Both the position numbers and the translations under genes were made by a program. Below, in pieces: positions 438 through 45,055 of a stretch of DNA of 45,055 bases. Below the pieces are notes generated by a model. The model saw only the letters and a program-made list of their open reading frames with translations. It searched no databases and was not told the origin of the DNA. Source of the stretch: Deltaproteobacteria bacterium (GTDB taxonomy: Bacteria > Desulfobacterota > Desulfobacteria > Desulfobacterales > ETH-SRB1); NCBI GenBank assembly GCA_030262775.1, contig JAJSZP010000002.1, positions 1-45,055 of the forward strand. Direction: 5' to 3'. Each line of letters opens with the position of its first letter. The stretch's first letter is position 1.

Positions 438-1649
438 ATGAAAACCATATGTTTATTGGAAAATACTATTCAGGAATATGCATGGGGATCTTACACAGCC
501 ATTCCTGAACTTTTAGATGAAAGTTCCCCTTCAGATGTTCCGCAGGCTGAGCTTTGGATGGGTGCACATCCTAAAGCGCCGTCAATGGTCAGATATAATG
601 GCAAGATGGTATCTTTACAAAAGATTATTAAAGATCATCCTAAGGACATTCTGGGGGAAACGGTTGCTGATAAATTTAACAACAAGCTTCCGTATTTGCT
701 AAAAATACTTGCTGCTGCCAGGCCCCTTTCAATACAAGCACACCCGAACCTTGCTCAAGCAAAGGAAGGATTTAATAGGGAAAGCGAACAGGGAATTTTC
801 ATAGATGCTCCAAACAGGAATTATAAAGATGCCAACCATAAACCGGAGTGTATTTGCGCTCTTACACCTTTCTGGGCATTGAATGGTTTCCGAAAAATTA
901 CCGGTATTCTTTTGTTTATGGAAAAAATCTGTTCTCAGAGTCTGGGGAGTATACTTGATGAACTCAGGAACCAACCTGATTCAAAAGGGCTGAAGAGTTT
1001 TTTTCAAGCCCTTTTGATGCTTGATCAAAAAAAGAAAAAACAGGTTATAGACGAGGCGGTAAATAACGCACAAAAGCTTGAAAAAAAAGACCCTGTGTTT
1101 GAATGGATAATAAAGCTTTCAAAAGAATATCCTGGAGATACAGGTGTGCTTTCACCTGCGTTTCTAAATCTTATCTGTCTTAAACCAGCCCAGGCCATGT
1201 TTTTATTTGCAGGAGAACTACATGCATATCTTGATGGTTTAGGCATAGAGTTGATGGCTAATTCGGATAACGTGTTAAGAGGCGGACTGACTCCCAAGCA
1301 TGTTGATGTTTCTGAAATACTGAAAGTTGTAAATTTTGAAGAAAGAGATATAAAAATTTTACAGTGTCAGGAAAACAACAGTAATGAATGTATATATTCG
1401 AGCAGAGCTGAAGAATTTATTTTGTCTGTAATTTCTGTGGATTCAACAAAAAACTATACAAGTCCGGCGGTAAGGAGTGCGGAAATATTGCTGTGTACGG
1501 ATGGTCAGGCAACCATCATAGATTTTAATAATAATGAAAAGATATCTTTAAAAAAAGGAAAATCCGTAATTGTGCCCGCATCGGTGAAGGTATATAGTAT
1601 TCAAGGGAAAGCTGTTTTTTACAAAGCATCTGTAAATAGCTTATATTAG
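438..1649 (+). CDS. manA: mannose-6-phosphate isomerase, class I
   Basis: 403-aa ORF. It carries type I PMI signatures: QEYAWGS, AELWMGAHP, LPYLLKILAAARPLSIQAHPN and ELMANSDNVLRGGLTPK. Confidence 0.9.
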   Translation: MKTICLLENTIQEYAWGSYTAIPELLDESSPSDVPQAELWMGAHPKAPSMVRYNGKMVSLQKIIKDHPKDILGETVADKFNNKLPYLLKILAAARPLSIQAHPNLAQAKEGFNRESEQGIFIDAPNRNYKDANHKPECICALTPFWALNGFRKITGILLFMEKICSQSLGSILDELRNQPDSKGLKSFFQALLMLDQKKKKQVIDEAVNNAQKLEKKDPVFEWIIKLSKEYPGDTGVLSPAFLNLICLKPAQAMFLFAGELHAYLDGLGIELMANSDNVLRGGLTPKHVDVSEILKVVNFEERDIKILQCQENNSNECIYSSRAEEFILSVISVDSTKNYTSPAVRSAEILLCTDGQATIIDFNNNEKISLKKGKSVIVPASVKVYSIQGKAVFYKASVNSLY

Positions 1650-1724
1650 CTCATAGCTCATAGTTAAATGATTGAATCCTTTTTGCTATCAGCTGTGAGC
1701 TATGAGCTAATATAAGCTATGAGC
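1648..1724. repeat. inverted heptamer arrays forming a hairpin just after the manA stop
   Basis: AGCTCAT AGCTCAT AG (1648-1663) matches the reverse complement of CTGTGAGCTATGAGCT (1693-1708) at 15/16 positions. The loop is 29 nt. A further GCTATGAGC lies at 1716-1724. Confidence 0.8.
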
Positions 1725-3952: not shown

Positions 3953-4113
3953 GAGACCTTTGCAAAATACTGAGACCTTTGAAAAATGGTAATTTTTGTT
4001 CGAGTTCAAAGAAGGCGAAAATTTCAACCACAGGAATATATAGAATATTTCGAGGATTGAAATTTGAGTCTGACGCAGAAATCGGGCATAAAGTGCCGTT
4101 TCGCAAAGGTCTC
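3953..4113 (-). mobile_element. MITE-like repeat family A, copy 1 (about 142 bp plus a duplicated 15-nt terminus)
   Basis: Read on the minus strand the termini are GAGACCTTTGCGAAACG ... CATTTTTCAAAGGTCTC, which are terminal inverted repeats. The interior aligns along its length with 26438-571 and partly with 5799-5903. An extra GAGACCTTTGCAAAA lies at 3953-3967. Confidence 0.7.
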
Positions 4114-4240
4114 ATACTAATTATCCAAAGGTTTCATTATAGATGGCTTTGTAAAAAGTATCACATCTCAACATGTATCCAATTTTCTAATAAAGCATTC
4201 CCAATAAATGGGGTTTTTCCCTTCGCTCCAATAAACAATC

Positions 4241-4275
4241 AGTATCCAGCAACAAGCAACCAGAAACGAGACCTT
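4241..4275 (+). repeat. phased heptamer array AGTATCC AGCAACA AGCAACC AGAAACG AGACCTT
   Basis: Read directly. It belongs to the same heptamer word family as 34336-34390 and 42719-42767. It sits 18 nt upstream of the regulator start codon and is followed by the palindrome GAGACCTTGGTCTC. Confidence 0.8.
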
Positions 4276-5711: not shown

Positions 5712-5798
5712 AGAAAATATTTCCGACTTATACTTCAATCATTAAAATGCATGATAATCTATAATTTTTACGAAGTGTATGAAATATCTCCTTTCTGT

Positions 5799-5903
5799 GA
5801 GACCTTTGCAAAACGTCCCTTTTTGCCCAATCTCTGCGTCAGGCTCAAAGTCCGGGATCTTCGACTTGACCTTGAACAAAAATGAACATTTTTCAAAGAT
5901 CTC
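5799..5903 (+). mobile_element. MITE-like repeat family A, copy 2 (internally shortened)
   Basis: GAGACCTTTGCAAAACGTCCC...CTGCGTCAGGCTCAAA...GAACAAAAATGAACATTTTTCAAAGATCTC. A related interior fragment, CCTGTGGTGAAAAAT, lies at 5949-5963. Confidence 0.65.
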
Positions 5904-22524: not shown

Positions 22525-23085
22525 ATGAAACGTTTATTTGACATCGTACTTGCCATAATAATTTCGATAGTCTTCTCCTTTCCCATGTTAATTATTGCTT
22601 TATCGGTGAAACTGACTTCCAAAGGCCCTATGCTTTACTGGTCGGACAGGGTTGGGAAAAAAAATACGATTTTCAAGATGCCAAAGTTCAGAACAATGAA
22701 GGCTGATACACCTGCAATGGCTACACATCTTATGAAAAATCCGGCGCAGTACTGCACTTCTGTAGGATCATTCCTGCGCAAATCAAGCCTGGATGAATTG
22801 CCGCAACTTTATAGTGTTTTAAAAGGGGATATGAGTTTTGTGGGGCCGCGGCCGGCACTTTTTAACCAGGATGATCTGATTGAGCTGAGAACAAAAAAAG
22901 GAATACATAACCTTATTCCCGGTATTACAGGTTGGGCACAGATTAATGGCAGAGACGACCTCCCTATTCCTGACAAGGTTGATCTGGATGAATATTATCT
23001 TAATAACCACTCTTTTATGTTTGACCTAAAAACATTATTCATGACATTACTCAGTGTGATTAATAGCCAGGGAGTACAACATTGA
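22525..23085 (+). CDS. small (PglC/WreU-type) undecaprenyl-phosphate sugar-phosphate transferase, initiating enzyme
   Basis: MKRLFDIVLAIIISIVF...KGPMLYWSDRVGKKNTIFKMPKFRTM...LDELPQLYSVLKGDMSFVGPRPAL is the bacterial sugar transferase family signature. Confidence 0.9.
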   Translation: MKRLFDIVLAIIISIVFSFPMLIIALSVKLTSKGPMLYWSDRVGKKNTIFKMPKFRTMKADTPAMATHLMKNPAQYCTSVGSFLRKSSLDELPQLYSVLKGDMSFVGPRPALFNQDDLIELRTKKGIHNLIPGITGWAQINGRDDLPIPDKVDLDEYYLNNHSFMFDLKTLFMTLLSVINSQGVQH

Positions 23086-23256
23086 TGGCGTCGTCAAAAG
23101 TCTCATCTACTGCGTTGTAGCGGTTTTTCAGGAACTCGACATACTATAAGTATAGTCTCGTCTCTGAAAAACCACTACGCCTTGCACCCCAAGGGCACTT
23201 CCTGCGGGGCGTATATGAGCCTTTTTACTTAGCCATCCGGCGCTTATTCAAAGACT
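23084..23256 (+). repeat. dispersed repeat family B, full copy (core hairpin module + distal module)
   Basis: It starts within the TGA stop (TGATGGCGTCGT). The core GGTTTTTCAG (23122-23131) pairs with CTGAAAAACC (23164-23173). Positions 23084-23176 align with the reverse complement of 38205-38301, and 23161-23256 align with the reverse complement of 44975-45035. Confidence 0.75.
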
Positions 23257-23274
23257 TTATCGTATCTATTCAGA

Positions 23275-26423: not shown

Positions 26424-26437
26424 GATAATATCTGAGC

Positions 26438-26571
26438 CAGTTTCAAAACGTCCCCTTTTGTCCGATATCTGCGTCAGGCTCAAATTTTAATCCTCGAAAT
26501 ACTACATGTATTCCTGTGGTTAAAATTTTCGCCTTCCTTGATCTCGAACAAAATTGAACATTTTGAAACTG
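26438..26571 (+). mobile_element. MITE-like repeat family A, copy 3
   Basis: CAGTTTCAAAACG...CTGCGTCAGGCTCAAATTTTAATCCTCGAAATACTACATGTATTCCTGTGGTTAAAATTTTCGCC...CATTTTGAAACTG aligns along its length with the reverse complement of 3972-4113. Confidence 0.7.
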
Positions 26572-26631
26572 CCTCATCTAAAAAACTTTTTATTACGAAA
26601 ACACGAAAAAGGTCTTAAAGGTAATTTATTT

Positions 26632-28833: not shown

Positions 28834-28847
28834 CTCCGATAAGAAAA

Positions 28848-28935
28848 GTTTTAAGTTTTAGATATTAAGTTATAAGTGTTTGATTAAATAGTAATTAGCA
28901 TTAACATAAAACCTAAAACTTAACACCTAAACATG
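28848..28935. repeat. dispersed repeat family C, copy 1: inverted heptamer arrays
   Basis: GTTTTAA GTTTTAG ATATTAA GTTATAA GTGTTTG (28848-28882) faces ...AAAACCT AAAACTT AACACCT AAACATG (28908-28935). It aligns with 35154-35229. Confidence 0.75.
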
Positions 28936-34264: not shown

Positions 34265-34335
34265 TTTAGTGGATGAGAGGTTACCACTCAACCGCTTATC
34301 TACCCAACCAACAACCAGCCAAAGGCGAAGCCTGG

Positions 34336-34390
34336 AGTATCCATCAACCGGTACCAATATCAAGTATCCAGAAACGAGTATCCAGTATTA
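34336..34390 (+). repeat. heptamer array of the AGTATCC/AGAAACG family running into the tlyA start codon
   Basis: AGTATCC is at 34336-34342. AGTATCC AGAAACG AGTATCC AGTATTA are in phase at 34363-34390, and the final A is the A of ATG 34390. Confidence 0.8.
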
Positions 34391-35133
34391 TGCCGGCAAA
34401 TAAACAACGATTAGACCTGGCTGTTGTAGAATCAGGGCTTGTGCAAAGCAGACAGCATGCGAAAGCCCTGATCATGGAAGGAAAAATTCTGGTCAATGAT
34501 CAGCCGGTTGATAAGCCTGGAACCCTGGTTTTTAAAAATGATAATTTATTCCTTAAAGGTAATGACATTCCCTATGTAAGCAGGGGCGGACTTAAGCTGG
34601 AATCAGCTCTTAAAGCTTTTGATATCAATGCCGATGGTTTTTTCTGCCTGGATGTTGGAGCATCTACAGGCGGTTTTACAGACTGCCTTCTGCAGCATGG
34701 CGCGGAAAAGGTTTTTGCAGTTGATGTTGGATATGGACAACTGGCATGGAAATTAAGACAGCATTCACGAATTATAGTCATCGAACGAACAAATATCCGC
34801 CATATGCCGCTAAAAGCCCTGCCCTTCCCTGTTGATCTTATTACAATAGATGTTTCCTTTATTTCCCTTAAAATTGTTGTTCCTGCTGTTATGAAGTTTA
34901 TGAAAAAAGATGCAGGTATTGTTGCCTTAATTAAACCACAGTTTGAAGTTGGCAGGGGAAAGGTTGGAAAAGGAGGTGTGGTGCGTAATTCTGATTTGCA
35001 TAATGAAGTGATATCTGAGCTCTCTGATTTTTTTATTGATAAAGGTTTTTTATGCAAACCGGTTATTCCGTCTCCAATACTTGGCCCTAAAGGAAACAGA
35101 GAATTTTTTATTCATTTAAAGATGGTCTCGTAA
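34390..35133 (+). CDS. tlyA: TlyA-family rRNA 2'-O-methyltransferase
   Basis: MPANKQRLDLAVVESGLVQSRQHAKALIMEGKILVN (S4 domain) and CLDVGASTGGFTDCLLQHGA. The track start at 34273 would translate the heptamer array, so I prefer ATG 34390. Confidence 0.85.
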   Translation: MPANKQRLDLAVVESGLVQSRQHAKALIMEGKILVNDQPVDKPGTLVFKNDNLFLKGNDIPYVSRGGLKLESALKAFDINADGFFCLDVGASTGGFTDCLLQHGAEKVFAVDVGYGQLAWKLRQHSRIIVIERTNIRHMPLKALPFPVDLITIDVSFISLKIVVPAVMKFMKKDAGIVALIKPQFEVGRGKVGKGGVVRNSDLHNEVISELSDFFIDKGFLCKPVIPSPILGPKGNREFFIHLKMVS

Positions 35134-35153: not shown

Positions 35154-35229
35154 GTTTTAAGTTTTAAGTGTTTGATAAAACCTACAATGACATTAACCTA
35201 AAACCTAAAACTTAACACCTAAAACCTGA
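35154..35229. repeat. dispersed repeat family C, copy 2
   Basis: GTTTTAA GTTTTAA GTGTTTG ... AACCTAA AACCTAA AACTTAA CACCTAA AACCTGA aligns with 28848-28935. Confidence 0.75.
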
Positions 35230-37541: not shown

Positions 37542-38180
37542 CTACCACCACACACTCATACACTTCTTACATGGTGCATACCCTTCCCAAAATGCATCCC
37601 ATTTGCTTGAAAAATAGATCTTATCTCTTATTTCTTTACCAAAACGGCATGTTTTAAGATGAAACCGTTTTGATTTTTTATTTCCTATATAACCCTCCCC
37701 TTTTTCTTTCCAATTGTGCCAAATTCCTTTTTTCCCCGACATTGCTTTCCGCTGGGCTTTAAGCAGCGCTGAATTATATCTGCTATTTGGCTTTCGAGTC
37801 AAAAAGAAGCCATATCCGTATTCCAGTATTTTTTCATTTATAAATCTGCCGTCCGGTAGGAATACATAAGCAAGCAATCTCCCATATTGATCGCGTTCCT
37901 CTTTGTCAAATTCAATGCGAACTTTCTTTTTAAATACAAGGGATTTGTTAAATAGTTTTGCTTTGTACCCATAAGGTTCGGCTTTTTTATTTCCATGGTC
38001 GATTTCAGGAGTATTAATTCCGATATACCTTATACAACGATTGTCATTTAAGATAATGGTGTCACCGTCATTTATCCACTTAACCCTAACCAATTCTTCC
38101 GCAAACAGTTCTGAGCTTGGTAAAAAAAGAAAAATTTGAATCAGTATAAAACAGCAGAGTAATTTTTTCATTATATTCAT
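37542..38180 (-). CDS. secreted thermonuclease (SNase family) with a C-terminal Ada-type Zn-binding domain
   Basis: Signal peptide MKKLLCCFILIQIFLFL. GDTIILNDNRCIRYIGINTPE and RDQYGRLLAYVF form the SNase core. The C-terminus is KRFHLKTCRFG...YAPCKKC. The track start at 38270 runs through repeat B2, so I prefer Met 38180 or 38171. Confidence 0.8.
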   Translation of the reverse strand: MNIMKKLLCCFILIQIFLFLPSSELFAEELVRVKWINDGDTIILNDNRCIRYIGINTPEIDHGNKKAEPYGYKAKLFNKSLVFKKKVRIEFDKEERDQYGRLLAYVFLPDGRFINEKILEYGYGFFLTRKPNSRYNSALLKAQRKAMSGKKGIWHNWKEKGEGYIGNKKSKRFHLKTCRFGKEIRDKIYFSSKWDAFWEGYAPCKKCMSVWW

Positions 38181-38204
38181 CCATGATGGTCTTGTAAAGA
38201 GTAT

Positions 38205-38301
38205 CACGGTGGTTTTTTCAGGAACGAGGCAATACATGCAGTATACCGAGTGTCTGAAAAACAGCTGCAACGCAGTAGATGGGATTTTCTACGACGCCAT
38301 C
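38205..38301 (-). repeat. dispersed repeat family B, core-module copy
   Basis: The reverse complement reads (T)GATGGCGTCGTAGAAAATCCCATCTACTGCGTTGCAGCTGTTTTTCAGACACTCGG...CCTGAAAAAACCAC and aligns with 23084-23176. It begins within the TGA stop of the SplB-like gene. Confidence 0.75.
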
Positions 38302-39400
38302 AACTTTGATCAAGTCCGCAGTGAATAGTCGCACTTTTATCAAGCATTTTCGACAACCCACCTCGATCAGATGGAATAAATCCAAAAGATTTTTTCCATA
38401 CTTCATCATCCTCCATACAAAAATATACCATAACATCCGGGGAATATTCTCTTATCCATCTTAACATTTTACTGTAAAGATTGATACGTAAAGGCTTAAA
38501 ATACCTCATTTTACCGTCCATACCCGAGATGAATTCGCCGTATATTATCTTAGAATCAGGAAAGCGTGTTTGTATTATCGTTTTTAAAGACGGCATATAA
38601 CGAAAAGTACCAAGGCTTATCCACACAATATTTTCCGAAGAAACATGGGAAAATATCTGTTCAACCACCTGTTTATAATCCTCCTCACATCCGTCATAAA
38701 TAAACATGGGATCAAAATGAAAGGCAACAGGGTAGCCCCACGACTCACATTTAGCAGCAGCTTTAAGTCTGGCTGAAAGTGATGCTGTGTTGCGTTCTTC
38801 ATCGTAAATAACCTTCTTTGTGTTAAGCGACCAGGAAACTATTGTTTTACGGTTGTGTTGAAGCTTTTTCAGCCTATTGACAGCCGTTGTTTTGGTTTTC
38901 AGCTCCAATACCGCAATAGACTGGCCTGAAAATTTCGGTACCAGCAAACTTGAAAGGTCGGTCCATGGCTCCCATATCATGCTGTCTGTAAACTCTCCTG
39001 TTCCTATCCTGTATATCTTTTTTTCTGCAAACAAGTCGTCGAGTTCTAAAAGAAGAGCTTCATGGTTTACAAAATACTGGAGAACCGGTGGGTGAAAATA
39101 AGACTGCAAAATACAGTATGAACAATCCATGCTGCAGAAAGTTCCTATATGCAGGATCTTATAGCCACAGCAGGTATAATAACTGGTACCCGGACATTTC
39201 TTGACAAAAGCACCCTTGTTTCGTGTGAGAAAAAGAATTTCTTTTCCTTTCTGTACCGGATCATCAGCCTGGGCTATGGAACTATAAACCTCTTGCACAT
39301 TACGAACTGTTAAAGAAGGACATTTAAAACGTGACATGATGGATTCAGTTAGAGGAGAATCGGCAATTTGCTGATCAATATAAATTTTTAAAGGCTGCAT
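38300..39400 (-). CDS. spore-photoproduct-lyase-family radical SAM protein
   Basis: 366 aa. The CSMDCSYC (CxxxCxxC) cluster follows ...KKCPGTSYYTCCGYKILHIGTF. Overall length and layout are like SplB homologs. Confidence 0.75.
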   Translation of the reverse strand: MQPLKIYIDQQIADSPLTESIMSRFKCPSLTVRNVQEVYSSIAQADDPVQKGKEILFLTRNKGAFVKKCPGTSYYTCCGYKILHIGTFCSMDCSYCILQSYFHPPVLQYFVNHEALLLELDDLFAEKKIYRIGTGEFTDSMIWEPWTDLSSLLVPKFSGQSIAVLELKTKTTAVNRLKKLQHNRKTIVSWSLNTKKVIYDEERNTASLSARLKAAAKCESWGYPVAFHFDPMFIYDGCEEDYKQVVEQIFSHVSSENIVWISLGTFRYMPSLKTIIQTRFPDSKIIYGEFISGMDGKMRYFKPLRINLYSKMLRWIREYSPDVMVYFCMEDDEVWKKSFGFIPSDRGGLSKMLDKSATIHCGLDQS

Positions 39401-39426: not shown

Positions 39427-39640
39427 GGATTGAAGATTTACGATTGTATATTGAAAATTTAATGTTAACTACTTACGTAGTTAGGCTGAAGGGGTAAGAA
39501 AAGCACGATTGCAGTGTTTTTGGCGAAATATGATTCTTGCATCAAACTCGGCTTTAAAATGTGCTTTTGCCTAACAGTCTTCAGCCTTCAGCCTATCCAC
39601 CTGAACAGAGCGACTTCAATCAATCTTCAATTTTCAATCT
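39427..39640. repeat. nested inverted-repeat block in the divergent intergenic region
   Basis: The outer arms are GGATTGAAGATTT...ATTGAAAATT (39427-39459) and CTTCAATCAATCTTCAATTTTCAATC (39615-39640). The middle arms are TAGGCTGAAGG (39482-39492) and CCTTCAGCCTA (39585-39595), with CTTCAGC duplicated. The inner arms are AAAAGCAC (39499-39506) and GTGCTTTT (39561-39568). Confidence 0.7.
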
Positions 39641-39691: not shown

Positions 39692-39949
39692 TTGACACTT
39701 ACCTTCCTTTATTCTATAGAAGAAATCATGATAAAAGATAAAGTAAAAGGTAAAAGACTTGTCGGTCTTTTTCTGCTTGGTTGTCTACTGTTCAACTTTC
39801 CCATCCTGTCTTTGTTCAACCTCAAAATCATAGTGTTCGGCATCCCGCTGTTATACCTTTATATTTTTTTAATATGGTTCATATTTATCGTATTTATTTA
39901 TTTAATCGTAAAGTTCAGCAAAGAGACCACACCCCAAATTCTCAAATAG
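39692..39949 (+). CDS. small two-helix membrane protein preceding the symporter-domain kinase (DUF3311-like position)
   Basis: Two hydrophobic helices (LVGLFLLGCLLFNFPILSLF; GIPLLYLYIFLIWFIFIVFIYLIV). A TTG start at 39692 lies 4 nt after GAGGAGG. An alternative ATG is at 39728. Confidence 0.5.
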   Translation: MTLTFLYSIEEIMIKDKVKGKRLVGLFLLGCLLFNFPILSLFNLKIIVFGIPLLYLYIFLIWFIFIVFIYLIVKFSKETTPQILK

Positions 39950-39958
39950 AGATAAATA

Positions 39959-42664
39959 ATGCTAAAAACAGAAGCCATACTTTTCTTTTCCTTCGGTTAT
40001 ATGGGGCTTCTTTTTGCCATTGCATTCTTTGGCGACAGGCATGCTAAAATCGGTCGAAGTATTGTAAGTAATCCGTATATTTATACTCTCTCCCTTGCAG
40101 TTTTTTGCACTGCCTGGACTTTTTACGGCAGTGTAGGACGTGCTGCAGCCACAGGCATAGGATTTTTGCCCATTTATATCGGCCCTACACTGATGGCGGC
40201 ATTAGGATGGCTTGTTCTGCGAAAGATCATACGTATCAGCAAGATACACCGCATTACCTCCATTGCCGATTTTATTGCTTCACGATATGGCAAAAGCTCA
40301 ACCCTGGCAAGTGTGGTTACCATAATCGCGGTTTTTGGCGTTATTCCATATATTTCACTCCAACTAAAGGCTATTTCAACAAGTTTTTTAATCATCAAGG
40401 AATATCCGATTATTACCATGCCGGGTCATTTTGCCGAAATTCCGGTACTTAAGGACACTGCTTTTTATGTTGCCCTGCTTCTCGCCATTTTTACCATTCT
40501 TTTCGGAACACGCCACCTTGACGCTACGGAGCGACATGAAGGCCTAGTTGCAGCTATTGCCTTTGAGTCTATAATAAAACTGATTGCTTTCCTGGCTGTG
40601 GGCATATTTGTTACATATGGAATTTACAACGGTTTTGGCGATATCATTGAAAAAGCTAAAGCGATACCTGAATTAAAACAGTCGTTTACCATGGGCACAT
40701 TGAGCGGCCCATATATTAACTGGAGCATATATATATTTCTTTCCATGATGGCGGTATTATTTCTTCCACGTCAATTTCAGATAGCGGTTGTCGAGAATGT
40801 AGATGAAGATCATTTAAAAAAAGCCATCTGGCTTTTCCCCTTATATTTACTGGCAATTAATATTTTTGTTCTGCCAATTGCATTCGGAGGTTTGCTGCAT
40901 TTTAATGGCGGGAATGTAGATGCCGACACCTTTGTCTTAACTCTTCCTATGTCTGAAAAGAAAGAAGTTCTGGCACTGTTTGTTTTTATCGGAGGAATGT
41001 CTGCTGCAACAGGCATGGTAATTGTTGCAACCATCGCTATTTCAACAATGATATGTAACGATCTTGTTATGCCGATACTTTTGCGCATGTCTTTTTTCAA
41101 CCTCGCAACAAAAGGTGACTTGAGTAATTTCCTTTTAACAATTCGCCGCGGAAGTATCATGCTGGTGCTTTTGATGGGTTATGTCTATTTTCGTTTTATA
41201 GGTGAATATTATACGCTGGTTTCCATCGGGCTTATCTCTTTTACAGCAGTGGCTCAGTTTGCCCCGGCTATTATAGGAGGTATATTCTGGAAAGGTGGAA
41301 CACGATTAGGTGCACTAAGCGGCCTGATTCTGGGCTTTCTGGTCTGGGTATATACACTTGTTTTTCCGTCTCTTGTTCAGGCAGGGTTTTTACCAAAAAG
41401 GTTTGTTACCGAGGGTCCTTTTAACCTTGAGCTACTGAGACCTTTTCAACTTTTCGGCCTCCAGGGCTTTGATCATATCACACATGCAGTTTTCTGGACT
41501 ATGCTTATTAATGTCGCAGCTTACGTGGGAGTATCGCTTTTCAGCCGTGCCAGTGCAATAGAACATACACAGGCAGCTTTTTTTGTAGATGTGTTTGAGT
41601 ATTCTGAAAAACCGGAAAAATCGTCTTTCTGGAGAGGAACGGCGTCAGTTAGGGATCTCAAATCCTTACTCAGACGGTTTTTAGGAAAAAAGAAAACCGA
41701 TAAAGAGTTATCTGTTTATGCTAAAGAGCACAATTTTATCTTGAAAAACAAATTAACTGCCGATGCCGATATGGTCAGTTATGCAGAAAAACTTTTGGCC
41801 GGGGCGATAGGATCTGCATCGGCACGTGTAATGGTATCATCGGTTGTAAAAGAAGAGCCTCTTGGCATAGACGAAGTAATGGATATTCTTGATGAAACGC
41901 GTGTGGTTATTGCATACAGCCGTGAGCTGGAAAGAGCGACTGCAGAGCTTCAAGCTGCAAACAAACGCCTGAAAGAACTCGACAGGCTGAAAGATGAGTT
42001 TATCTCAACAGTTACGCATGAGCTGCGTACACCTCTTACTTCAGTGCGGTCTATTGCTGAAATACTCCATGAAAATCCGAAAATTGATGATGCACAGAAA
42101 AAAAGCTTTTCAGCAATTATTATTAAGGAAACTGACAGGTTAACTCGATTAATAGTTCAGGTTCTGGATTTTCAGAAGATTGAATCCGGCAAAATTCAAT
42201 TTGAAATTTCCCGTGTTGACTTTAAAGAAGTCATTAAAGATGCAATTTCAGCTACCAGTCGGTTAATAGAGGATAAAAATATTAAAGTTATTTTAAACCT
42301 GCCTGACAGCATAACTCTGATTGACGGAGATCGAGACCGCCTGATTCAGGTTATGGTCAACCTGATTTCCAATGCAGTGAAATTTTGCTACAATATCGGG
42401 GGGATAATATCTGTTGATCTGACAACTAAAACTAATCATCTGAAAATTAATGTGAAAGATAATGGAATCGGAATAAGCCGCAAAAACCAGAAGATTATTT
42501 TTCAAGAATTTCGTCAGGTTAAGGATTCTTCTATGGGGCGTCCGGCAGGAAGCGGGCTTGGACTGGCAATTACCAAGAAAATTATCGATTTTCATAAGGG
42601 AAAAATCCGGGTAAAAAGCAAGCCCGGAAAAGGTTCAACGTTTTCGTTTACTTTGCCGCTTTAG
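39959..42664 (+). CDS. sensor histidine kinase with an N-terminal sodium:solute-symporter (SLC5) domain, CbrA/CrbS type
   Basis: Roughly 13 TM helices span residues 1-540. Then come a coiled coil, the H-box FISTVTHELRTPLTSV, the N-box NLISNAVKF, DNGIGIS and GSGLGLAITKKII. There is no receiver domain, and no response regulator gene in the window. Confidence 0.9.
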   Translation: MLKTEAILFFSFGYMGLLFAIAFFGDRHAKIGRSIVSNPYIYTLSLAVFCTAWTFYGSVGRAAATGIGFLPIYIGPTLMAALGWLVLRKIIRISKIHRITSIADFIASRYGKSSTLASVVTIIAVFGVIPYISLQLKAISTSFLIIKEYPIITMPGHFAEIPVLKDTAFYVALLLAIFTILFGTRHLDATERHEGLVAAIAFESIIKLIAFLAVGIFVTYGIYNGFGDIIEKAKAIPELKQSFTMGTLSGPYINWSIYIFLSMMAVLFLPRQFQIAVVENVDEDHLKKAIWLFPLYLLAINIFVLPIAFGGLLHFNGGNVDADTFVLTLPMSEKKEVLALFVFIGGMSAATGMVIVATIAISTMICNDLVMPILLRMSFFNLATKGDLSNFLLTIRRGSIMLVLLMGYVYFRFIGEYYTLVSIGLISFTAVAQFAPAIIGGIFWKGGTRLGALSGLILGFLVWVYTLVFPSLVQAGFLPKRFVTEGPFNLELLRPFQLFGLQGFDHITHAVFWTMLINVAAYVGVSLFSRASAIEHTQAAFFVDVFEYSEKPEKSSFWRGTASVRDLKSLLRRFLGKKKTDKELSVYAKEHNFILKNKLTADADMVSYAEKLLAGAIGSASARVMVSSVVKEEPLGIDEVMDILDETRVVIAYSRELERATAELQAANKRLKELDRLKDEFISTVTHELRTPLTSVRSIAEILHENPKIDDAQKKSFSAIIIKETDRLTRLIVQVLDFQKIESGKIQFEISRVDFKEVIKDAISATSRLIEDKNIKVILNLPDSITLIDGDRDRLIQVMVNLISNAVKFCYNIGGIISVDLTTKTNHLKINVKDNGIGISRKNQKIIFQEFRQVKDSSMGRPAGSGLGLAITKKIIDFHKGKIRVKSKPGKGSTFSFTLPL

Positions 42665-42767
42665 CATTGAGCATTTATCATTTAGCATTGATCATTTGAC
42701 ATTGAACATTTAGAAGGTAGCAACGAGCAACCAGTATCCAGCAACCAGTATCGAGTATCCAGAATCA
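42662..42767 (+). repeat. two back-to-back phased heptamer arrays (7 + 7 units) filling the whole convergent intergenic gap
   Basis: 42662-42710 reads TAGCATT GAGCATT TATCATT TAGCATT GATCATT TGACATT GAACATT; the first unit contains the kinase stop codon. 42719-42767 reads AGCAACG AGCAACC AGTATCC AGCAACC AGTATCG AGTATCC AGAATCA; the last unit contains the rc stop of the minus-strand gene. Confidence 0.9.
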
Positions 42768-44936
42768 ATATTTCTTTCGAGCGTAAAAGGTCTTTCTGGA
42801 GGCAAGCCTGGCTTCCTTTAAAGTATGGATCCCCTGCTTGGCCAGAAGTGGAATTAATTTAAGAAGAATCTCACCCGCTGCAATAGCATCACCTAAAGCT
42901 GTATGCCTGCCGACAATACTTACCCCCAACCTTTCAGCTATCGCTTCCATGTTGTGATTTTCCTGGAAAGGATGAACAACAGAAGAAAGAAGCAGAGTAT
43001 CCAATACAGGATTCGAGAATTTAACACCTGTCTTTCCCTCTTTTATCTGCAACATGCGCATATCAAATGCTGCATTGTGTGCGACAAGGATAGTATCTTC
43101 AGAAAATTTGTGAAATAAGGGAAGAACCTTGTCGATGGTGGGCTGGTTGTGAAGCATCTCAGGTTTAATGCCATGTATCTGCATCGATTCAAAAGGTAAC
43201 GATCGCTTTGGATCTATTAACTGATCGAAGTTTTCTTCATTCAGCAGGTTGCAATTTATAATACGTATGGCTCCGATTGAAATTATCTCATCTCCTTGAG
43301 AAGGATTCAACCCTGTTGTTTCCGTATCAAAAACAGTATATGAAAGCTCATCCAGAGAACGGTTATCCAGCTTAGTATTTTGTCCAGGCTGGTTAAACAG
43401 ATCGAAGTCATAAAATTCCGGTCTGCTTTCAAGCAGGATTGTCGGGCTTGATAAATGTTTCAGCTCTGAAACTTCGATGGCTGGAAGCAGTAATCTAAGG
43501 TAAGATTTGCTTGAATCTTTAAATGAATAAGACCAGATTTCTCCCTCATGATGTTTGATAACTTCTTTTAAAGTTAAAGGTATGCTTTCATTTTCAATGG
43601 AAATAAACTGTTCATCCCATTTTTTAAGCACTTCAATTTTAACAGGACTACCGTACCACAGCAGATCAAAATTGATAAACCGCCCTTTCTTTTTAAATAT
43701 GCAGTCAAATTCTTTAGCATTAGTCTCTTTTTTTAACTTATTCAGCAAAAAAAGCGTGGCTAAAACGATTGAGTAACTATCGACCTGAATCCTGATTTTT
43801 TCGCTGCATTTTTCTATATTAATTTGAATGTCAAGCTTATCTTTGGTTTTTCGTTTGATAGCCTCAAGCATGTCTTGAGCCTTCATTTGAACCAGCGGCC
43901 ACCTGGTGCGAATACGGGAAGTAGAATCTGAATCGGCTTTGTCAACTATCTTACCGATTGTTAGCGATTCTTTATGTATAATTTTTCTAAAAATATCGAG
44001 CTGGAATCTGTCCATATCCGGAAATTCACGGATCGCTTCAATCGCTGCACGTACACTTGCAAGTGACCCCCTGATTCCCCTTCTTAGAGACTGCAAGAGA
44101 GAATCTATCCGGCTGTCGGATTCGAATTGCTGTGTGATATCGTGAAGTGTGAGTATAAAACCTTTAAAATCTCTATGATTATTGAGAATAGGGACTGCCT
44201 CAACACGGAGAAGACGGTCTTGATTATCTGCAACAACAAAATAAGAAGCTGCGTTGGTTTCCTTGCGATTTAATTTATCAGCAATCTCATCCACGGCATG
44301 TACAATGAGGTTTTTGTTAATTATGCTGAAAACCGAGCGTCCAAGTCCTATAAAACGACCCGACTCATTTCCGCCAAGAGCTTTACGAAACCTGTTATCC
44401 TTATCTCCGATAAGGAACCTTTTAGCCCGTTTGTTGTATAAAAGAATCTGCCCTTCCCTGTTACAGATTATCACACCCTCGGGCAATTCAGCCATTAGTG
44501 CTATCAGAATATTTTTTTCTTCTTCGGATTCTGATTTTGCCTGCCGGATTCTTTCTTCTATGTTGTTTTGTCGGTTTTCAAAGCGTTCCGCCCATTCGTT
44601 GATAACTTTGGCAAGGCTCACCACTTCTCCGCTTCCTTCAGGATGAATACGATGGGATGGGTTGACAGAATTAATCAAAATGGTTTCTTCGGTAAGTTTG
44701 TCTAAGGGAAGAATATAAAAACGAAACACCCAGTCAAGACCAAACCCAAGACCTGCCAGCAACAGGAAAACAGTTGTAAATATATATAAAAAATTTCGCT
44801 TTATAATTTCCGTCATGAAAAACTGCTCTCCAGGTAAAAGCTGGTGCCAGAATAAAAAAGCAACAGTGATTATAAAAAGCAAGGTAAATGCAATAGAAAC
44901 TATTGCAAACCACATAAATTTATTGTTTTGCTTCAT
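42765..44936 (-). CDS. membrane sensor protein: 2 TM + HAMP-like linker + PAS-like domain + degenerate histidine-kinase-like module + C-terminal DEDDh (DnaQ/RNase T-type) 3'-5' exonuclease
   Basis: Exonuclease motifs: VFDTETTGL (Exo I), VAHNAAFDMRML (Exo II) and HTALGDAIAAGE (Exo III, H-x4-D). The PAS-like region is LMAELPEGVIICNREGQILLYNKRAKRFL...FILTLHDITQQ. The DHp-like helix LLQSLRRGIRGSLASVRAAIEAI lacks the phospho-acceptor His, and the CA-like region lacks the G1/G2 boxes. Confidence 0.8.
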   Translation of the reverse strand: MKQNNKFMWFAIVSIAFTLLFIITVAFLFWHQLLPGEQFFMTEIIKRNFLYIFTTVFLLLAGLGFGLDWVFRFYILPLDKLTEETILINSVNPSHRIHPEGSGEVVSLAKVINEWAERFENRQNNIEERIRQAKSESEEEKNILIALMAELPEGVIICNREGQILLYNKRAKRFLIGDKDNRFRKALGGNESGRFIGLGRSVFSIINKNLIVHAVDEIADKLNRKETNAASYFVVADNQDRLLRVEAVPILNNHRDFKGFILTLHDITQQFESDSRIDSLLQSLRRGIRGSLASVRAAIEAIREFPDMDRFQLDIFRKIIHKESLTIGKIVDKADSDSTSRIRTRWPLVQMKAQDMLEAIKRKTKDKLDIQINIEKCSEKIRIQVDSYSIVLATLFLLNKLKKETNAKEFDCIFKKKGRFINFDLLWYGSPVKIEVLKKWDEQFISIENESIPLTLKEVIKHHEGEIWSYSFKDSSKSYLRLLLPAIEVSELKHLSSPTILLESRPEFYDFDLFNQPGQNTKLDNRSLDELSYTVFDTETTGLNPSQGDEIISIGAIRIINCNLLNEENFDQLIDPKRSLPFESMQIHGIKPEMLHNQPTIDKVLPLFHKFSEDTILVAHNAAFDMRMLQIKEGKTGVKFSNPVLDTLLLSSVVHPFQENHNMEAIAERLGVSIVGRHTALGDAIAAGEILLKLIPLLAKQGIHTLKEARLASRKTFYARKKY

Positions 44937-44974
44937 TTTTATTCTTCAAGCAGTTCTTTGATGAATTCGTAAAA

Positions 44975-45055
44975 ATATCACCGATGGCTAAGTAGAAAGT
45001 TTCATATACAAGGCGCAGTGGTTTTTCAGAGACGAGGCAATACATGTAGTATGCC
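44975..45055 (-). repeat. dispersed repeat family B, copy truncated by the window end
   Basis: GATGGCTAAGTAGAAAGTTTCATATACAAGGCGCAGTGGTTTTTCAGAGACGAGGCAATACATGTAGTATGCC matches 38205-38250 (core), and matches the reverse complement of 23161-23240 (distal module) with an internal deletion. Confidence 0.7.

Follow-up and report, generated by a model that had tools for sequence, protein, structure and literature searches.

A membrane protein joining a predicted pseudo-histidine kinase to a DEDDh exonuclease, and its genomic association with a stand-alone receiver

Background

The output of a two-component system is nearly always a DNA-binding regulator or one of a few kinds of enzymes, for example those of cyclic-di-GMP turnover, methylesterases or phosphatases, and we know of no described case in which it is a nuclease. 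A candidate for such an output is encoded in the stretch of DNA analysed here (hereafter, the window), which comprises the first 45,055 nucleotides of contig JAJSZP010000002.1 (assembly GCA_030262775.1) from a deltaproteobacterium of the Desulfobacterales lineage ETH-SRB1. The gene, at 42765..44936 on the minus strand, encodes a membrane protein of 723 residues in which a HAMP-like segment and a PAS domain are followed by a pseudo-histidine kinase and a DEDDh exonuclease. The literature searched contained no account of an exonuclease joined to a kinase-like protein. The protein can be classed as a repurposed histidine-kinase chassis with a previously undescribed type of output; pseudo-kinases that read single-domain regulators, and proteins that resemble histidine kinases without being kinases, are already known.

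The nearest described counterpart of the sensor part is DivL of Caulobacter crescentus, a kinase without the acceptor histidine that senses the phosphorylated single-domain regulator DivK~P through its DHp domain (PMC4211667). Like DivL, the window protein is a PAS-containing protein with a HisKA-type DHp-CA core and no acceptor histidine, in its relatives a stand-alone receiver (REC) is encoded beside it, and the DivL core is among its fold matches. In contrast, DivL has a Tyr at the histidine position, keeps a nucleotide-binding CA domain, has no enzymatic output and acts on CckA, whereas the window protein has an Arg at that position (mostly Glu in its relatives), a degenerate CA domain and a fused exonuclease, and its binding of REC is only proposed here. 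NifL, RetS and the histidine-kinase-related domains of plant phytochromes are likewise fold matches in which a histidine kinase fold has been kept as a regulatory or protein-binding module; unlike the window protein they carry no nuclease, and their outputs are protein-protein interactions.

With respect to the exonuclease, the closest precedent is a Pseudomonas gene pair, PP_0354/PP_0353, encoding a DUF294 protein and an exonuclease. Expression of this pair depends strongly on MxtR/ErdR (CrbS/CrbR) and its deletion has a slight phenotype (PMC9927547; bioRxiv 10.64898/2026.09.07.749794); in September 2026 its function was still described as unclear by the authors (bioRxiv 10.64898/2026.09.07.749794). 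The homologues in P. aeruginosa PAO1 adjoin actP-yjcH, and the DUF294 homologue is treated in PMC5715377. In Pseudomonas, and in many loci of the present family, an RNase_T-type exonuclease has genetic links to a cNMP-CBS-DUF294 protein, to a kinase of the SLC5 type and to genes for the use of acetate or short-chain acids. The Pseudomonas control, however, is transcriptional and runs through the DNA-binding CrbR, and PP_0353 is described with an RNase_T/exonuclease domain only; the present exonuclease is fused to a sensor and a pseudo-kinase and lies in an operon with a REC-only regulator. The third comparison concerns the kinase encoded next to the gene, which resembles CbrA of Pseudomonas, the SLC5-STAC structure of CbrXA being available as PDB entry 10ED (PMC13488458). 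Both have an SLC5-STAC part, intact HisKA and HATPase_c domains and a small membrane protein ORF (open reading frame) directly upstream. CbrA signals to the NtrC-type regulator CbrB, whereas here the only conserved REC-like neighbour is a stand-alone REC of 122 residues. Lastly, PolC, DinG, Cas2-DEDDh and GIY-YIG/DEDD proteins contain exonucleases of the same family (22-39% identity, root-mean-square deviation 1.6-2.3 Å); in those proteins it is the partner domain, such as a polymerase, helicase or CRISPR adaptation module, that provides the nucleic-acid context, and here the partner is a signal-transduction module.

Results and discussion

A histidine kinase fold without kinase catalysis

The ORF runs from its ATG to its stop without frame breaks, exactly as given in the first-pass annotation of the window, whose other coordinates also hold. 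All parts of the protein described below lie on the minus strand, and all conservation values refer to an alignment of 81 sequences, the window protein and 80 genomic loci. AlphaFold2 (AF2) modelled the full-length protein with a mean pLDDT of 74.

The centre of the protein comprises a DHp-like helical hairpin (residues 269-338, 43923..44132) and a degenerate, GHKL-like alpha/beta domain in the place of CA (residues 346-487, 43476..43901). The hairpin was recognised by BLASTP to the DHp domain of the neighbouring kinase, with 34% identity over 53 residues, and by hidden Markov model alignment to the H-boxes of WalK and HK853; the CA-like domain was recognised by profile alignment to the CA domains of ThkA and WalK, by Foldseek and by its conservation. 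When a profile of residues 272-522, built from 14 family members, was compared with the PDB, histidine kinases made up 10 of the 11 sequences found at E <10, among them ThkA (E 6e-4) and WalK (E 0.006, with an alignment spanning both DHp and CA). Structural comparison agrees. With the full-length model as the Foldseek query, the N-terminal 490 residues matched WalK, VicK, LOV-kinases, ThkA, HK853, NifL and plant phytochromes, and with a separate model of residues 272-522 (pLDDT 79) the top 50 matches were all DHp-CA cores of histidine kinases (E 1e-9 to 1e-12, about 215-240 aligned columns), including the pseudokinases DivL and RetS. Three independent routes thus give the central region a histidine-kinase-like DHp and CA fold. 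A by-eye alignment of RRGIRGSL in this protein with THELRTPL of the neighbouring kinase had first suggested such a module; the same alignment was reproduced by BLASTP and HMMER, and the profile and structure searches that had been proposed for the region returned a kinase-like fold.

The residues needed for catalysis have not been kept. The position of the phospho-acceptor histidine is R286 in the window protein (44079-44081), and across the 81 sequences it is occupied by Glu (53), Arg (6), Asp (6), Gln (4), Thr (2) or Lys (2) and never by His. A Glu or Asp at this site could provide a fixed negative charge that mimics the phosphorylated state. The residue after this position (H+1) is Gly in 57 of the 81 sequences and the fourth (H+4) is Ala, Gly or Ser in 73; hence the phosphatase motif of HisKA proteins, E/DxxT/N, has also been lost. 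In the CA-like domain the G1 motif DxGxG aligns to W427-x-G429-x-P, with the invariant W427 at the position of the Asp. The first-pass annotation had described both the G1 and the G2 (ATP-lid) boxes as missing; this is borne out for the G1 Asp, whereas the G2 segment lands in a gap of the profile alignment to ThkA and WalK. The Asn of the N-box is not conserved, and no match to Pfam HATPase_c was found in the 723 residues. Judging from these substitutions, the kinase core is predicted to be catalytically dead. The mean column conservation of DHp and CA is 0.51-0.55. Helix 1 of DHp is conserved despite the lost catalysis.

The likeness of this module to the kinases encoded beside it brings in a first alternative, namely that the pseudo-kinase regulates the kinase pathway itself, either by forming a heterodimer with the CbrA-like kinase, as RetS does with GacS, or by sequestering REC. 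It would then chiefly tune the phospho-signal, with the exonuclease as a secondary or constitutive activity. With the pseudo-kinase profile, the CbrA-like kinases of the same operons score 15-41 bits (median 29, n=59) and the best kinases of the PDB no more than 22, a modest sign of common origin, of a shared partner, or of both. The pseudo-DHp is in this respect nearer to its operon's own kinase than to kinases in general; both proteins are membrane-bound, and the core of RetS is among the Foldseek matches. The absence of the phosphatase motif counts against such a role, and two further points given below, the conservation of the exonuclease and the exchange of the output domain, do so as well. 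We regard this alternative as unlikely.

The exonuclease domain and the motif that precedes it

The exonuclease domain occupies residues 531-704 (42825..43346). Pfam RNase_T (PF00929) matches residues 535-690 (42867-43334) with E 6.6e-35 and 121.5 bits against a cut-off of 24, in agreement with the span of about 42830-43310 initially assigned to an intact DnaQ/RNase T-type exonuclease. All three Exo motifs that were reported are present, Exo I DTE at 43311-43334, Exo II HNAAFD at 43062-43079 and Exo III H678-x4-D683 at 42888-42905, the last containing the histidine that defines DEDDh enzymes. None of the catalytic residues D537, E539, D625, H678 and D683 varies among the 81 sequences, indicating a DEDDh active site that is complete as far as can be judged from its residues. 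With a mean column conservation of 0.77, the exonuclease is also the most conserved domain of the protein, and this, together with its invariant active site, argues for a selected output and against a secondary nuclease attached to a regulator of the kinase pathway. It is followed by a conserved basic C-terminal helix (residues 705-723; 42765..42824 with the stop codon; conservation 0.70).

The best solved relative is the exonuclease domain of Thermotoga PolC (2p1j, E 1e-30), and Foldseek likewise aligned this part with a PolC exonuclease (root-mean-square deviation 1.6), with DnaQ (8h2f, TMt 0.87), with epsilon (2gui, TMt 0.85) and with DinG. Among NCBIfam models, the best scores were obtained by PolC-type and PRK07740/PRK07883 models, above PRK09145/PRK09146. 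By these comparisons the domain is closest to the DNA-type DEDDh domains of DnaQ, PolC, DinG and CRISPR-associated proteins and not to Orn or RNase T.

Residues 488-530 (43347..43475) form a linker between the CA-like domain and the exonuclease that was modelled with low confidence (pLDDT <50 at residues 489-508). It contains the near-invariant motif SRPEFYDFDLF (residues 505-514, 43395-43424), in which the columns R505, P506, E507, F508, F511, D512 and F514 are invariant. The beta-clamp-binding consensus is QL[SD]LF, and the linker motif is loosely similar to it but has no Gln. Another possibility is that it acts on the exonuclease as an intramolecular regulatory peptide.

These relationships raise the question of whether the protein is a paralogue of DnaQ/epsilon that acts as a proofreader in replication or repair, perhaps recruited to the clamp through its DFDLF-like sequence. 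Its closest exonuclease relatives are indeed domains of PolC, epsilon and DinG, the linker has the loose clamp-like character just described, and a gene of DNA-repair type, similar to spore photoproduct lyase (SPL), is linked to the family in Desulfobacterales. However, the scores for the replication equivalogs remain far under their cut-offs (dnaQ_proteo 109.8 against 222.7 bits, PRK05711 103 against 196, PolC 145 against 873), and the matches to epsilon and PolC models cover the exonuclease domain only. The Gln that is invariant in clamp motifs is missing, the exonuclease comes after a membrane anchor and signalling domains amounting to 530 residues, and the operon contains a kinase, a REC and genes of carbon assimilation. 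A proofreading role is therefore considered very improbable. Participation in anti-phage defence was also considered and rejected, since the PADLOC matches were domain-level ones to DEDDh and REC only, with none for DUF294 or the SPL-like protein.

The stand-alone receiver and the conserved operon

In a syntenic relative with 90% identity (L002/L003), the genes are arranged in the order TetR, acs, SSF permease, acs, a stand-alone REC of 122 residues and the exonuclease gene, the stop codon of the REC gene lying 2 nt before the ATG of the exonuclease gene. The same REC is present in a relative with 94% identity (L085), and all phospho-acceptor residues of the REC are present. Among 79 related loci, 68 have a REC gene directly upstream on the same strand, and in many of them the two genes overlap by 4 nt or are 2 nt apart. 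A CbrA-like kinase is encoded in 60, being upstream on the same strand in 54 and convergent, as in the window, in 5. A cNMP-CBS-DUF294 nucleotidyltransferase is found in 57 and is directly downstream in 32. When only the 57 well-flanked loci are considered, 45 contain both REC and kinase, 5 REC only, 1 kinase only and 6 neither. The typical betaproteobacterial operon consists of a small ORF, the kinase, REC, the exonuclease gene and DUF294, while in Desulfobacterales the gene set adjoins genes for acetyl-CoA synthetase and an SSF/ActP-like permease. The first-pass annotation had noted that DnaQ-like exonuclease genes often lie near acetate or symporter loci; the acs, SSF, acs, REC, exonuclease order of the close relatives and the CrbS/R dependence of PP_0354/PP_0353 bear this link out.

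The window itself differs from its relatives in the REC gene. Immediately upstream of the exonuclease gene, a 26-nt remnant (44939..44964, minus strand) encodes the end of the stand-alone REC (..KELLEE and stop) and is identical to the REC end in L002 and L085. Its stop codon likewise lies 2 nt before the ATG of the exonuclease gene, and the frame upstream of the remnant holds stops. In the place of the REC body, a copy of a dispersed repeat extends from 44983 to the window end at 45055; over this segment neither the L002 nor the L085 REC gene shows similarity. The repeat resembles a miniature inverted-repeat transposable element and begins 45 nt upstream of the exonuclease start; further copies, 80-90% similar and in part inverted, lie at 2925-2975, 23077-23258 and 38214-38308. 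Because the window ends inside the repeat, an insertion into the REC gene and an assembly break look alike here. The earlier statement that the window has no response regulator is thus literally right, yet the last codons of one are present at 44939-44964, and the whole gene is found in the relatives. A second dispersed repeat family, with copies at 3971-4114, 5798-5849 and 26433-26576, was also observed in the window (up to 144 nt, 81-87% similar, direct and inverted).

The tight REC junction bears on a further alternative, in which the protein is an autonomous sensor nuclease gated by its own membrane, HAMP and PAS input, for example a ligand or the redox state. In such a protein the dead DHp-CA would serve for dimerisation and transmission, and REC would belong to the CbrA-like kinase only, as a sink or for another target. 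In favour of this alternative, the motifs VxxCN and GLGRS of the PAS core are among the best-conserved outside the exonuclease, some loci carry the gene without REC or kinase, and the window keeps an intact gene even though REC is cut. The junction with REC in 68/79 loci, tight and often overlapping, points the other way, and so does the conservation of DHp helix 1 in a module with dead catalysis. Nor was another conserved output candidate seen nearby: a tblastn search that used REC as its sole query gave additional REC-like matches within 10 kb in no more than about 5 loci, and no DNA-binding regulator was called in the relatives' loci, where DNA-binding output domains were not searched for. 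We consider an autonomous nuclease rather doubtful.

The PAS domain on which that alternative leans occupies residues 151-268 (44133..44486). It is supported by Pfam matches just under the cut-offs (PAS_9 E 1.5e-5, PAS_4 E 3e-4), by a PAS fold at residues 154-266 of the AF2 model and by conservation in the alignment. Its core (residues 154-201, 44334-44477) has the conserved family-specific motifs VxxCN.dG.ILLYN, with an invariant C158, and GLGRS at 197-201, which suggest a defined ligand or cofactor. Ahead of it are two transmembrane helices at about residues 7-30 and 49-76 (44709..44918; seen in the sequence and as AF2 helices 3-31 and 49-75), joined by a loop of 18 residues, without a large extracytoplasmic domain, and a HAMP-like segment with a signalling helix or coiled coil at residues 77-150 (44487..44708). 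The latter was assigned by the NCBIfam WalK profile, of which positions 200-426 match residues 73-331 at E 1.8e-14, by AF2 helices 78-91 and 103-149 and by Foldseek matches to WalK and VicK. The AF2 model, the WalK profile and the sub-cutoff Pfam matches together bear out the two helices, coiled-coil linker and PAS-like domain first read from the sequence.

Distribution of the family and exchange of its output domain

More than 600 homologues of about 720 residues cover the query completely (100%) at 53-94% identity; no exact copy of the window protein was found in public assemblies. A scan of one genome per species gave 80 loci with full-length matches at 35-56% identity, which belong to Desulfobacterales, many Burkholderiales, Rhodocyclaceae (Zoogloea, Dechloromonas, Accumulibacter, Azonexus and Sulfuritalea), Competibacter, Thiothrix, Colwellia, a Pseudomonas isolate, Chloroflexi and Xanthobacter. 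Isolate genomes with the gene include those of Pseudomonas sp. MMS21, Azonexus hydrophilus, Tepidicella xavieri and Ramlibacter aurantiacus. A search with the pseudo-kinase profile returned 957 clusters (50% identity) at E <=1e-3 and 176 at <=1e-30, nearly all of the 957 having the module at residues ~270-520 of a protein of 700-730 residues. In databases the homologues are named 'exonuclease domain-containing protein', 'PAS domain-containing protein' or 'DNA polymerase III subunit epsilon'. The family is common, in sulfate reducers as well as in the polyphosphate- and glycogen-accumulating bacteria of wastewater (Accumulibacter, Dechloromonas, Competibacter and Zoogloea), yet unstudied, and some of the isolates could be used for genetics.

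The first-pass annotation had allowed for an artefact of frameshift or assembly that relatives would lack. The open frame is uninterrupted, more than 600 proteins and 80 genomes of several phyla, isolates among them, have the fusion at full length, and the layout is nearly uniform among the profile clusters. The chance of an artefact is negligible.

Two clusters depart from this layout. In P0125 (811 residues; locus L086, 2313-4748) and the fragment P0217, the HAMP, PAS and pseudo-kinase parts are followed not by an exonuclease but by DUF294, represented by its catalytic and C-terminal domains. The switch point lies exactly at the first exonuclease strand (..YTV|FDTETTG), and RPEFYDFDLF has decayed there; from this pattern the linker motif appears to be tied to the exonuclease. 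Since DUF294 replaces the exonuclease in these proteins, one input module can drive either a nucleotidyltransferase or an exonuclease. That the same sensor module also drives a DUF294 enzyme domain argues in addition against a pseudo-kinase acting chiefly on the kinase pathway. Two other candidate observations were rejected. An apparent occurrence of RPEFYDFDLF in native DUF294 proteins proved to be a loose extension of the alignment, and an apparent displacement by a DEDDy exonuclease in P0226, based on a match to Pfam DNA_pol_A_exo1, was traced by BLAST to a divergent member of the DEDDh domain.

A model for receiver-gated exonuclease activity

The wiring of the proposed pathway can be read from the genome, which encodes a kinase, a REC and an enzyme to which a dead kinase is fused. 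The CbrA-like transceptor kinase would report the uptake of small carboxylates, for example acetate, and phosphorylate the single-domain REC. Phosphorylated REC would dock on the DHp-like helices that the dead kinase has kept, in the way that DivL reads DivK~P, and this docking, together with the protein's own PAS/HAMP input, would shift the conformation of the dimer, a change that the RPEFYDFDLF linker may relay to the exonuclease. A two-component pathway would in this way end in a nuclease and not in a transcription factor. The architecture with its dead kinase and intact exonuclease, the co-occurrence of REC and kinase, the tight REC junction, the DHp likeness, the modularity of P0125/P0217, the precedent of DivL and the setting among acs and SSF genes all count for gating by REC. 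For the core of this model, that the kinase phosphorylates REC on carboxylate transport and that docking of phosphorylated REC on the DHp-like helices gates the exonuclease together with PAS/HAMP, we consider the chances to be about even.

Several points weigh against the receiver-gated model. Adjacency of genes is no proof that REC binds the protein, and REC could serve the kinase only, for instance as a phosphate sink. The related loci that were counted are not phylogenetically independent. As 6/57 well-flanked loci have neither REC nor kinase, the protein can exist, at least locally, without them, and the window's own REC gene is not intact; in this genome it would have been cut by the repeat insertion, unless the assembly breaks there. 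The modest similarity between the pseudo-DHp and the partner kinase would fit heterodimerisation equally well. Finally, DUF294 is absent from the 45-kb window and, in its closest relatives (L002 and L003), from the surrounding ±10 kb, and the link to the nucleotidyltransferase is thus not universal.

The likely substrate would be the 3' end of a nucleic acid or of an oligonucleotide that is made or extended by the co-encoded DUF294 nucleotidyltransferase; the partnership suggests that the exonuclease takes off nucleotides which DUF294 has added. The first-pass annotation had likewise read the protein as a signal-gated nuclease and named nanoRNAs, linear or cyclic (oligo)nucleotide second messengers and specific transcripts as possible substrates; both the gating and these substrates are putative. 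A wider version of the model, in which the pathway from the CbrA-like kinase to REC has no transcription factor at all and the gated exonuclease trims, while DUF294 extends, the 3' end of one specific signal, be it RNA, DNA or an oligonucleotide, is put forward tentatively as a possibility. If true, it would imply post-transcriptional or second-messenger control over the assimilation of acetate and short-chain acids and would explain a long-unassigned pair of the CrbS/R regulon. The family may thereby give a role to the DUF294/DnaQ-like pair, which is among the most strongly CrbS/R-dependent genes of Pseudomonas.

The neighbouring kinase and other features of the window

The convergent gene at 39959..42664 (plus strand) encodes a kinase of 901 residues with Pfam HisKA at 678-744 (E 1e-15), HATPase_c at 790-901 (E 7.5e-27) and an intact H-box. 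Residues 7-587 match PDB 10ED, the cryo-EM structure of Pseudomonas CbrXA SLC5-STAC, at E 2.9e-74, which identifies it as a transceptor of the CbrA type. Pfam SSF was not detected in it, and BLAST to the local SSF permease gave no significant match; its SLC5 nature was settled through the sequence of the CbrA structure. HATPase_c reaches to its last residue, 901, and Response_reg has no Pfam match in it; being without a fused receiver, it is not of the CrbS type. The earlier designation CbrA/CrbS-type SLC5 kinase is therefore right in its first half only; nor was a DNA-binding regulator, such as a LuxR-type CrbR partner, called in the relatives' loci, where such output domains were not searched for. 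Directly upstream, in the position of cbrX, is the gene of a small membrane protein (39728..39949, plus strand), 47% identical to its counterpart in L001. A small ORF ahead of the kinase occurs in most related loci; the PDB search with the window's ORF gave no match, and homology to CbrX is not demonstrable.

The two convergent genes are separated by a spacer of 100 bp (42665..42764) with two heptamer arrays, found by Tandem Repeats Finder as period-7 arrays at 42663-42710 and 42731-42766. They are imperfect, with 75-79% matches, so that a spacer of pure heptamer repeats, as it was first called, is slightly overstated. No hairpin resembling an intrinsic terminator was found in 42665-42764. Heptamer arrays of various units occur in many intergenic regions of the window (1647-1709, 4229-4271, 28846-28931, 34336-34388, 35154-35227, 39575-39640 and 42663-42766), and one lies between the same convergent genes in L002 (12246-12356). 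These arrays are a genome-wide intergenic feature and are not specific to this locus. They are reminiscent of the heptamer repeats of filamentous bacteria.

Near the kinase gene are two further genes on the minus strand, the SPL-like radical-SAM gene (38300-39400; TIGR04070 E 5e-34, below cut-off) and a homologue of staphylococcal nuclease (37542-38270). In 8 Desulfobacterales loci the SPL-like gene is found linked with exonuclease/DUF294 genes, and in L009 and L011 its start lies 48 bp beyond the exonuclease gene; this linkage could hint at a nucleic-acid substrate. Lastly, the ORF of an S4/FtsJ (TlyA-like) methyltransferase at 34273-35133 (plus strand) has the heptamer array 34336-34388 in its 5' end and a length of 286 residues, against 247 in L002, and its annotated start is probably too far upstream.

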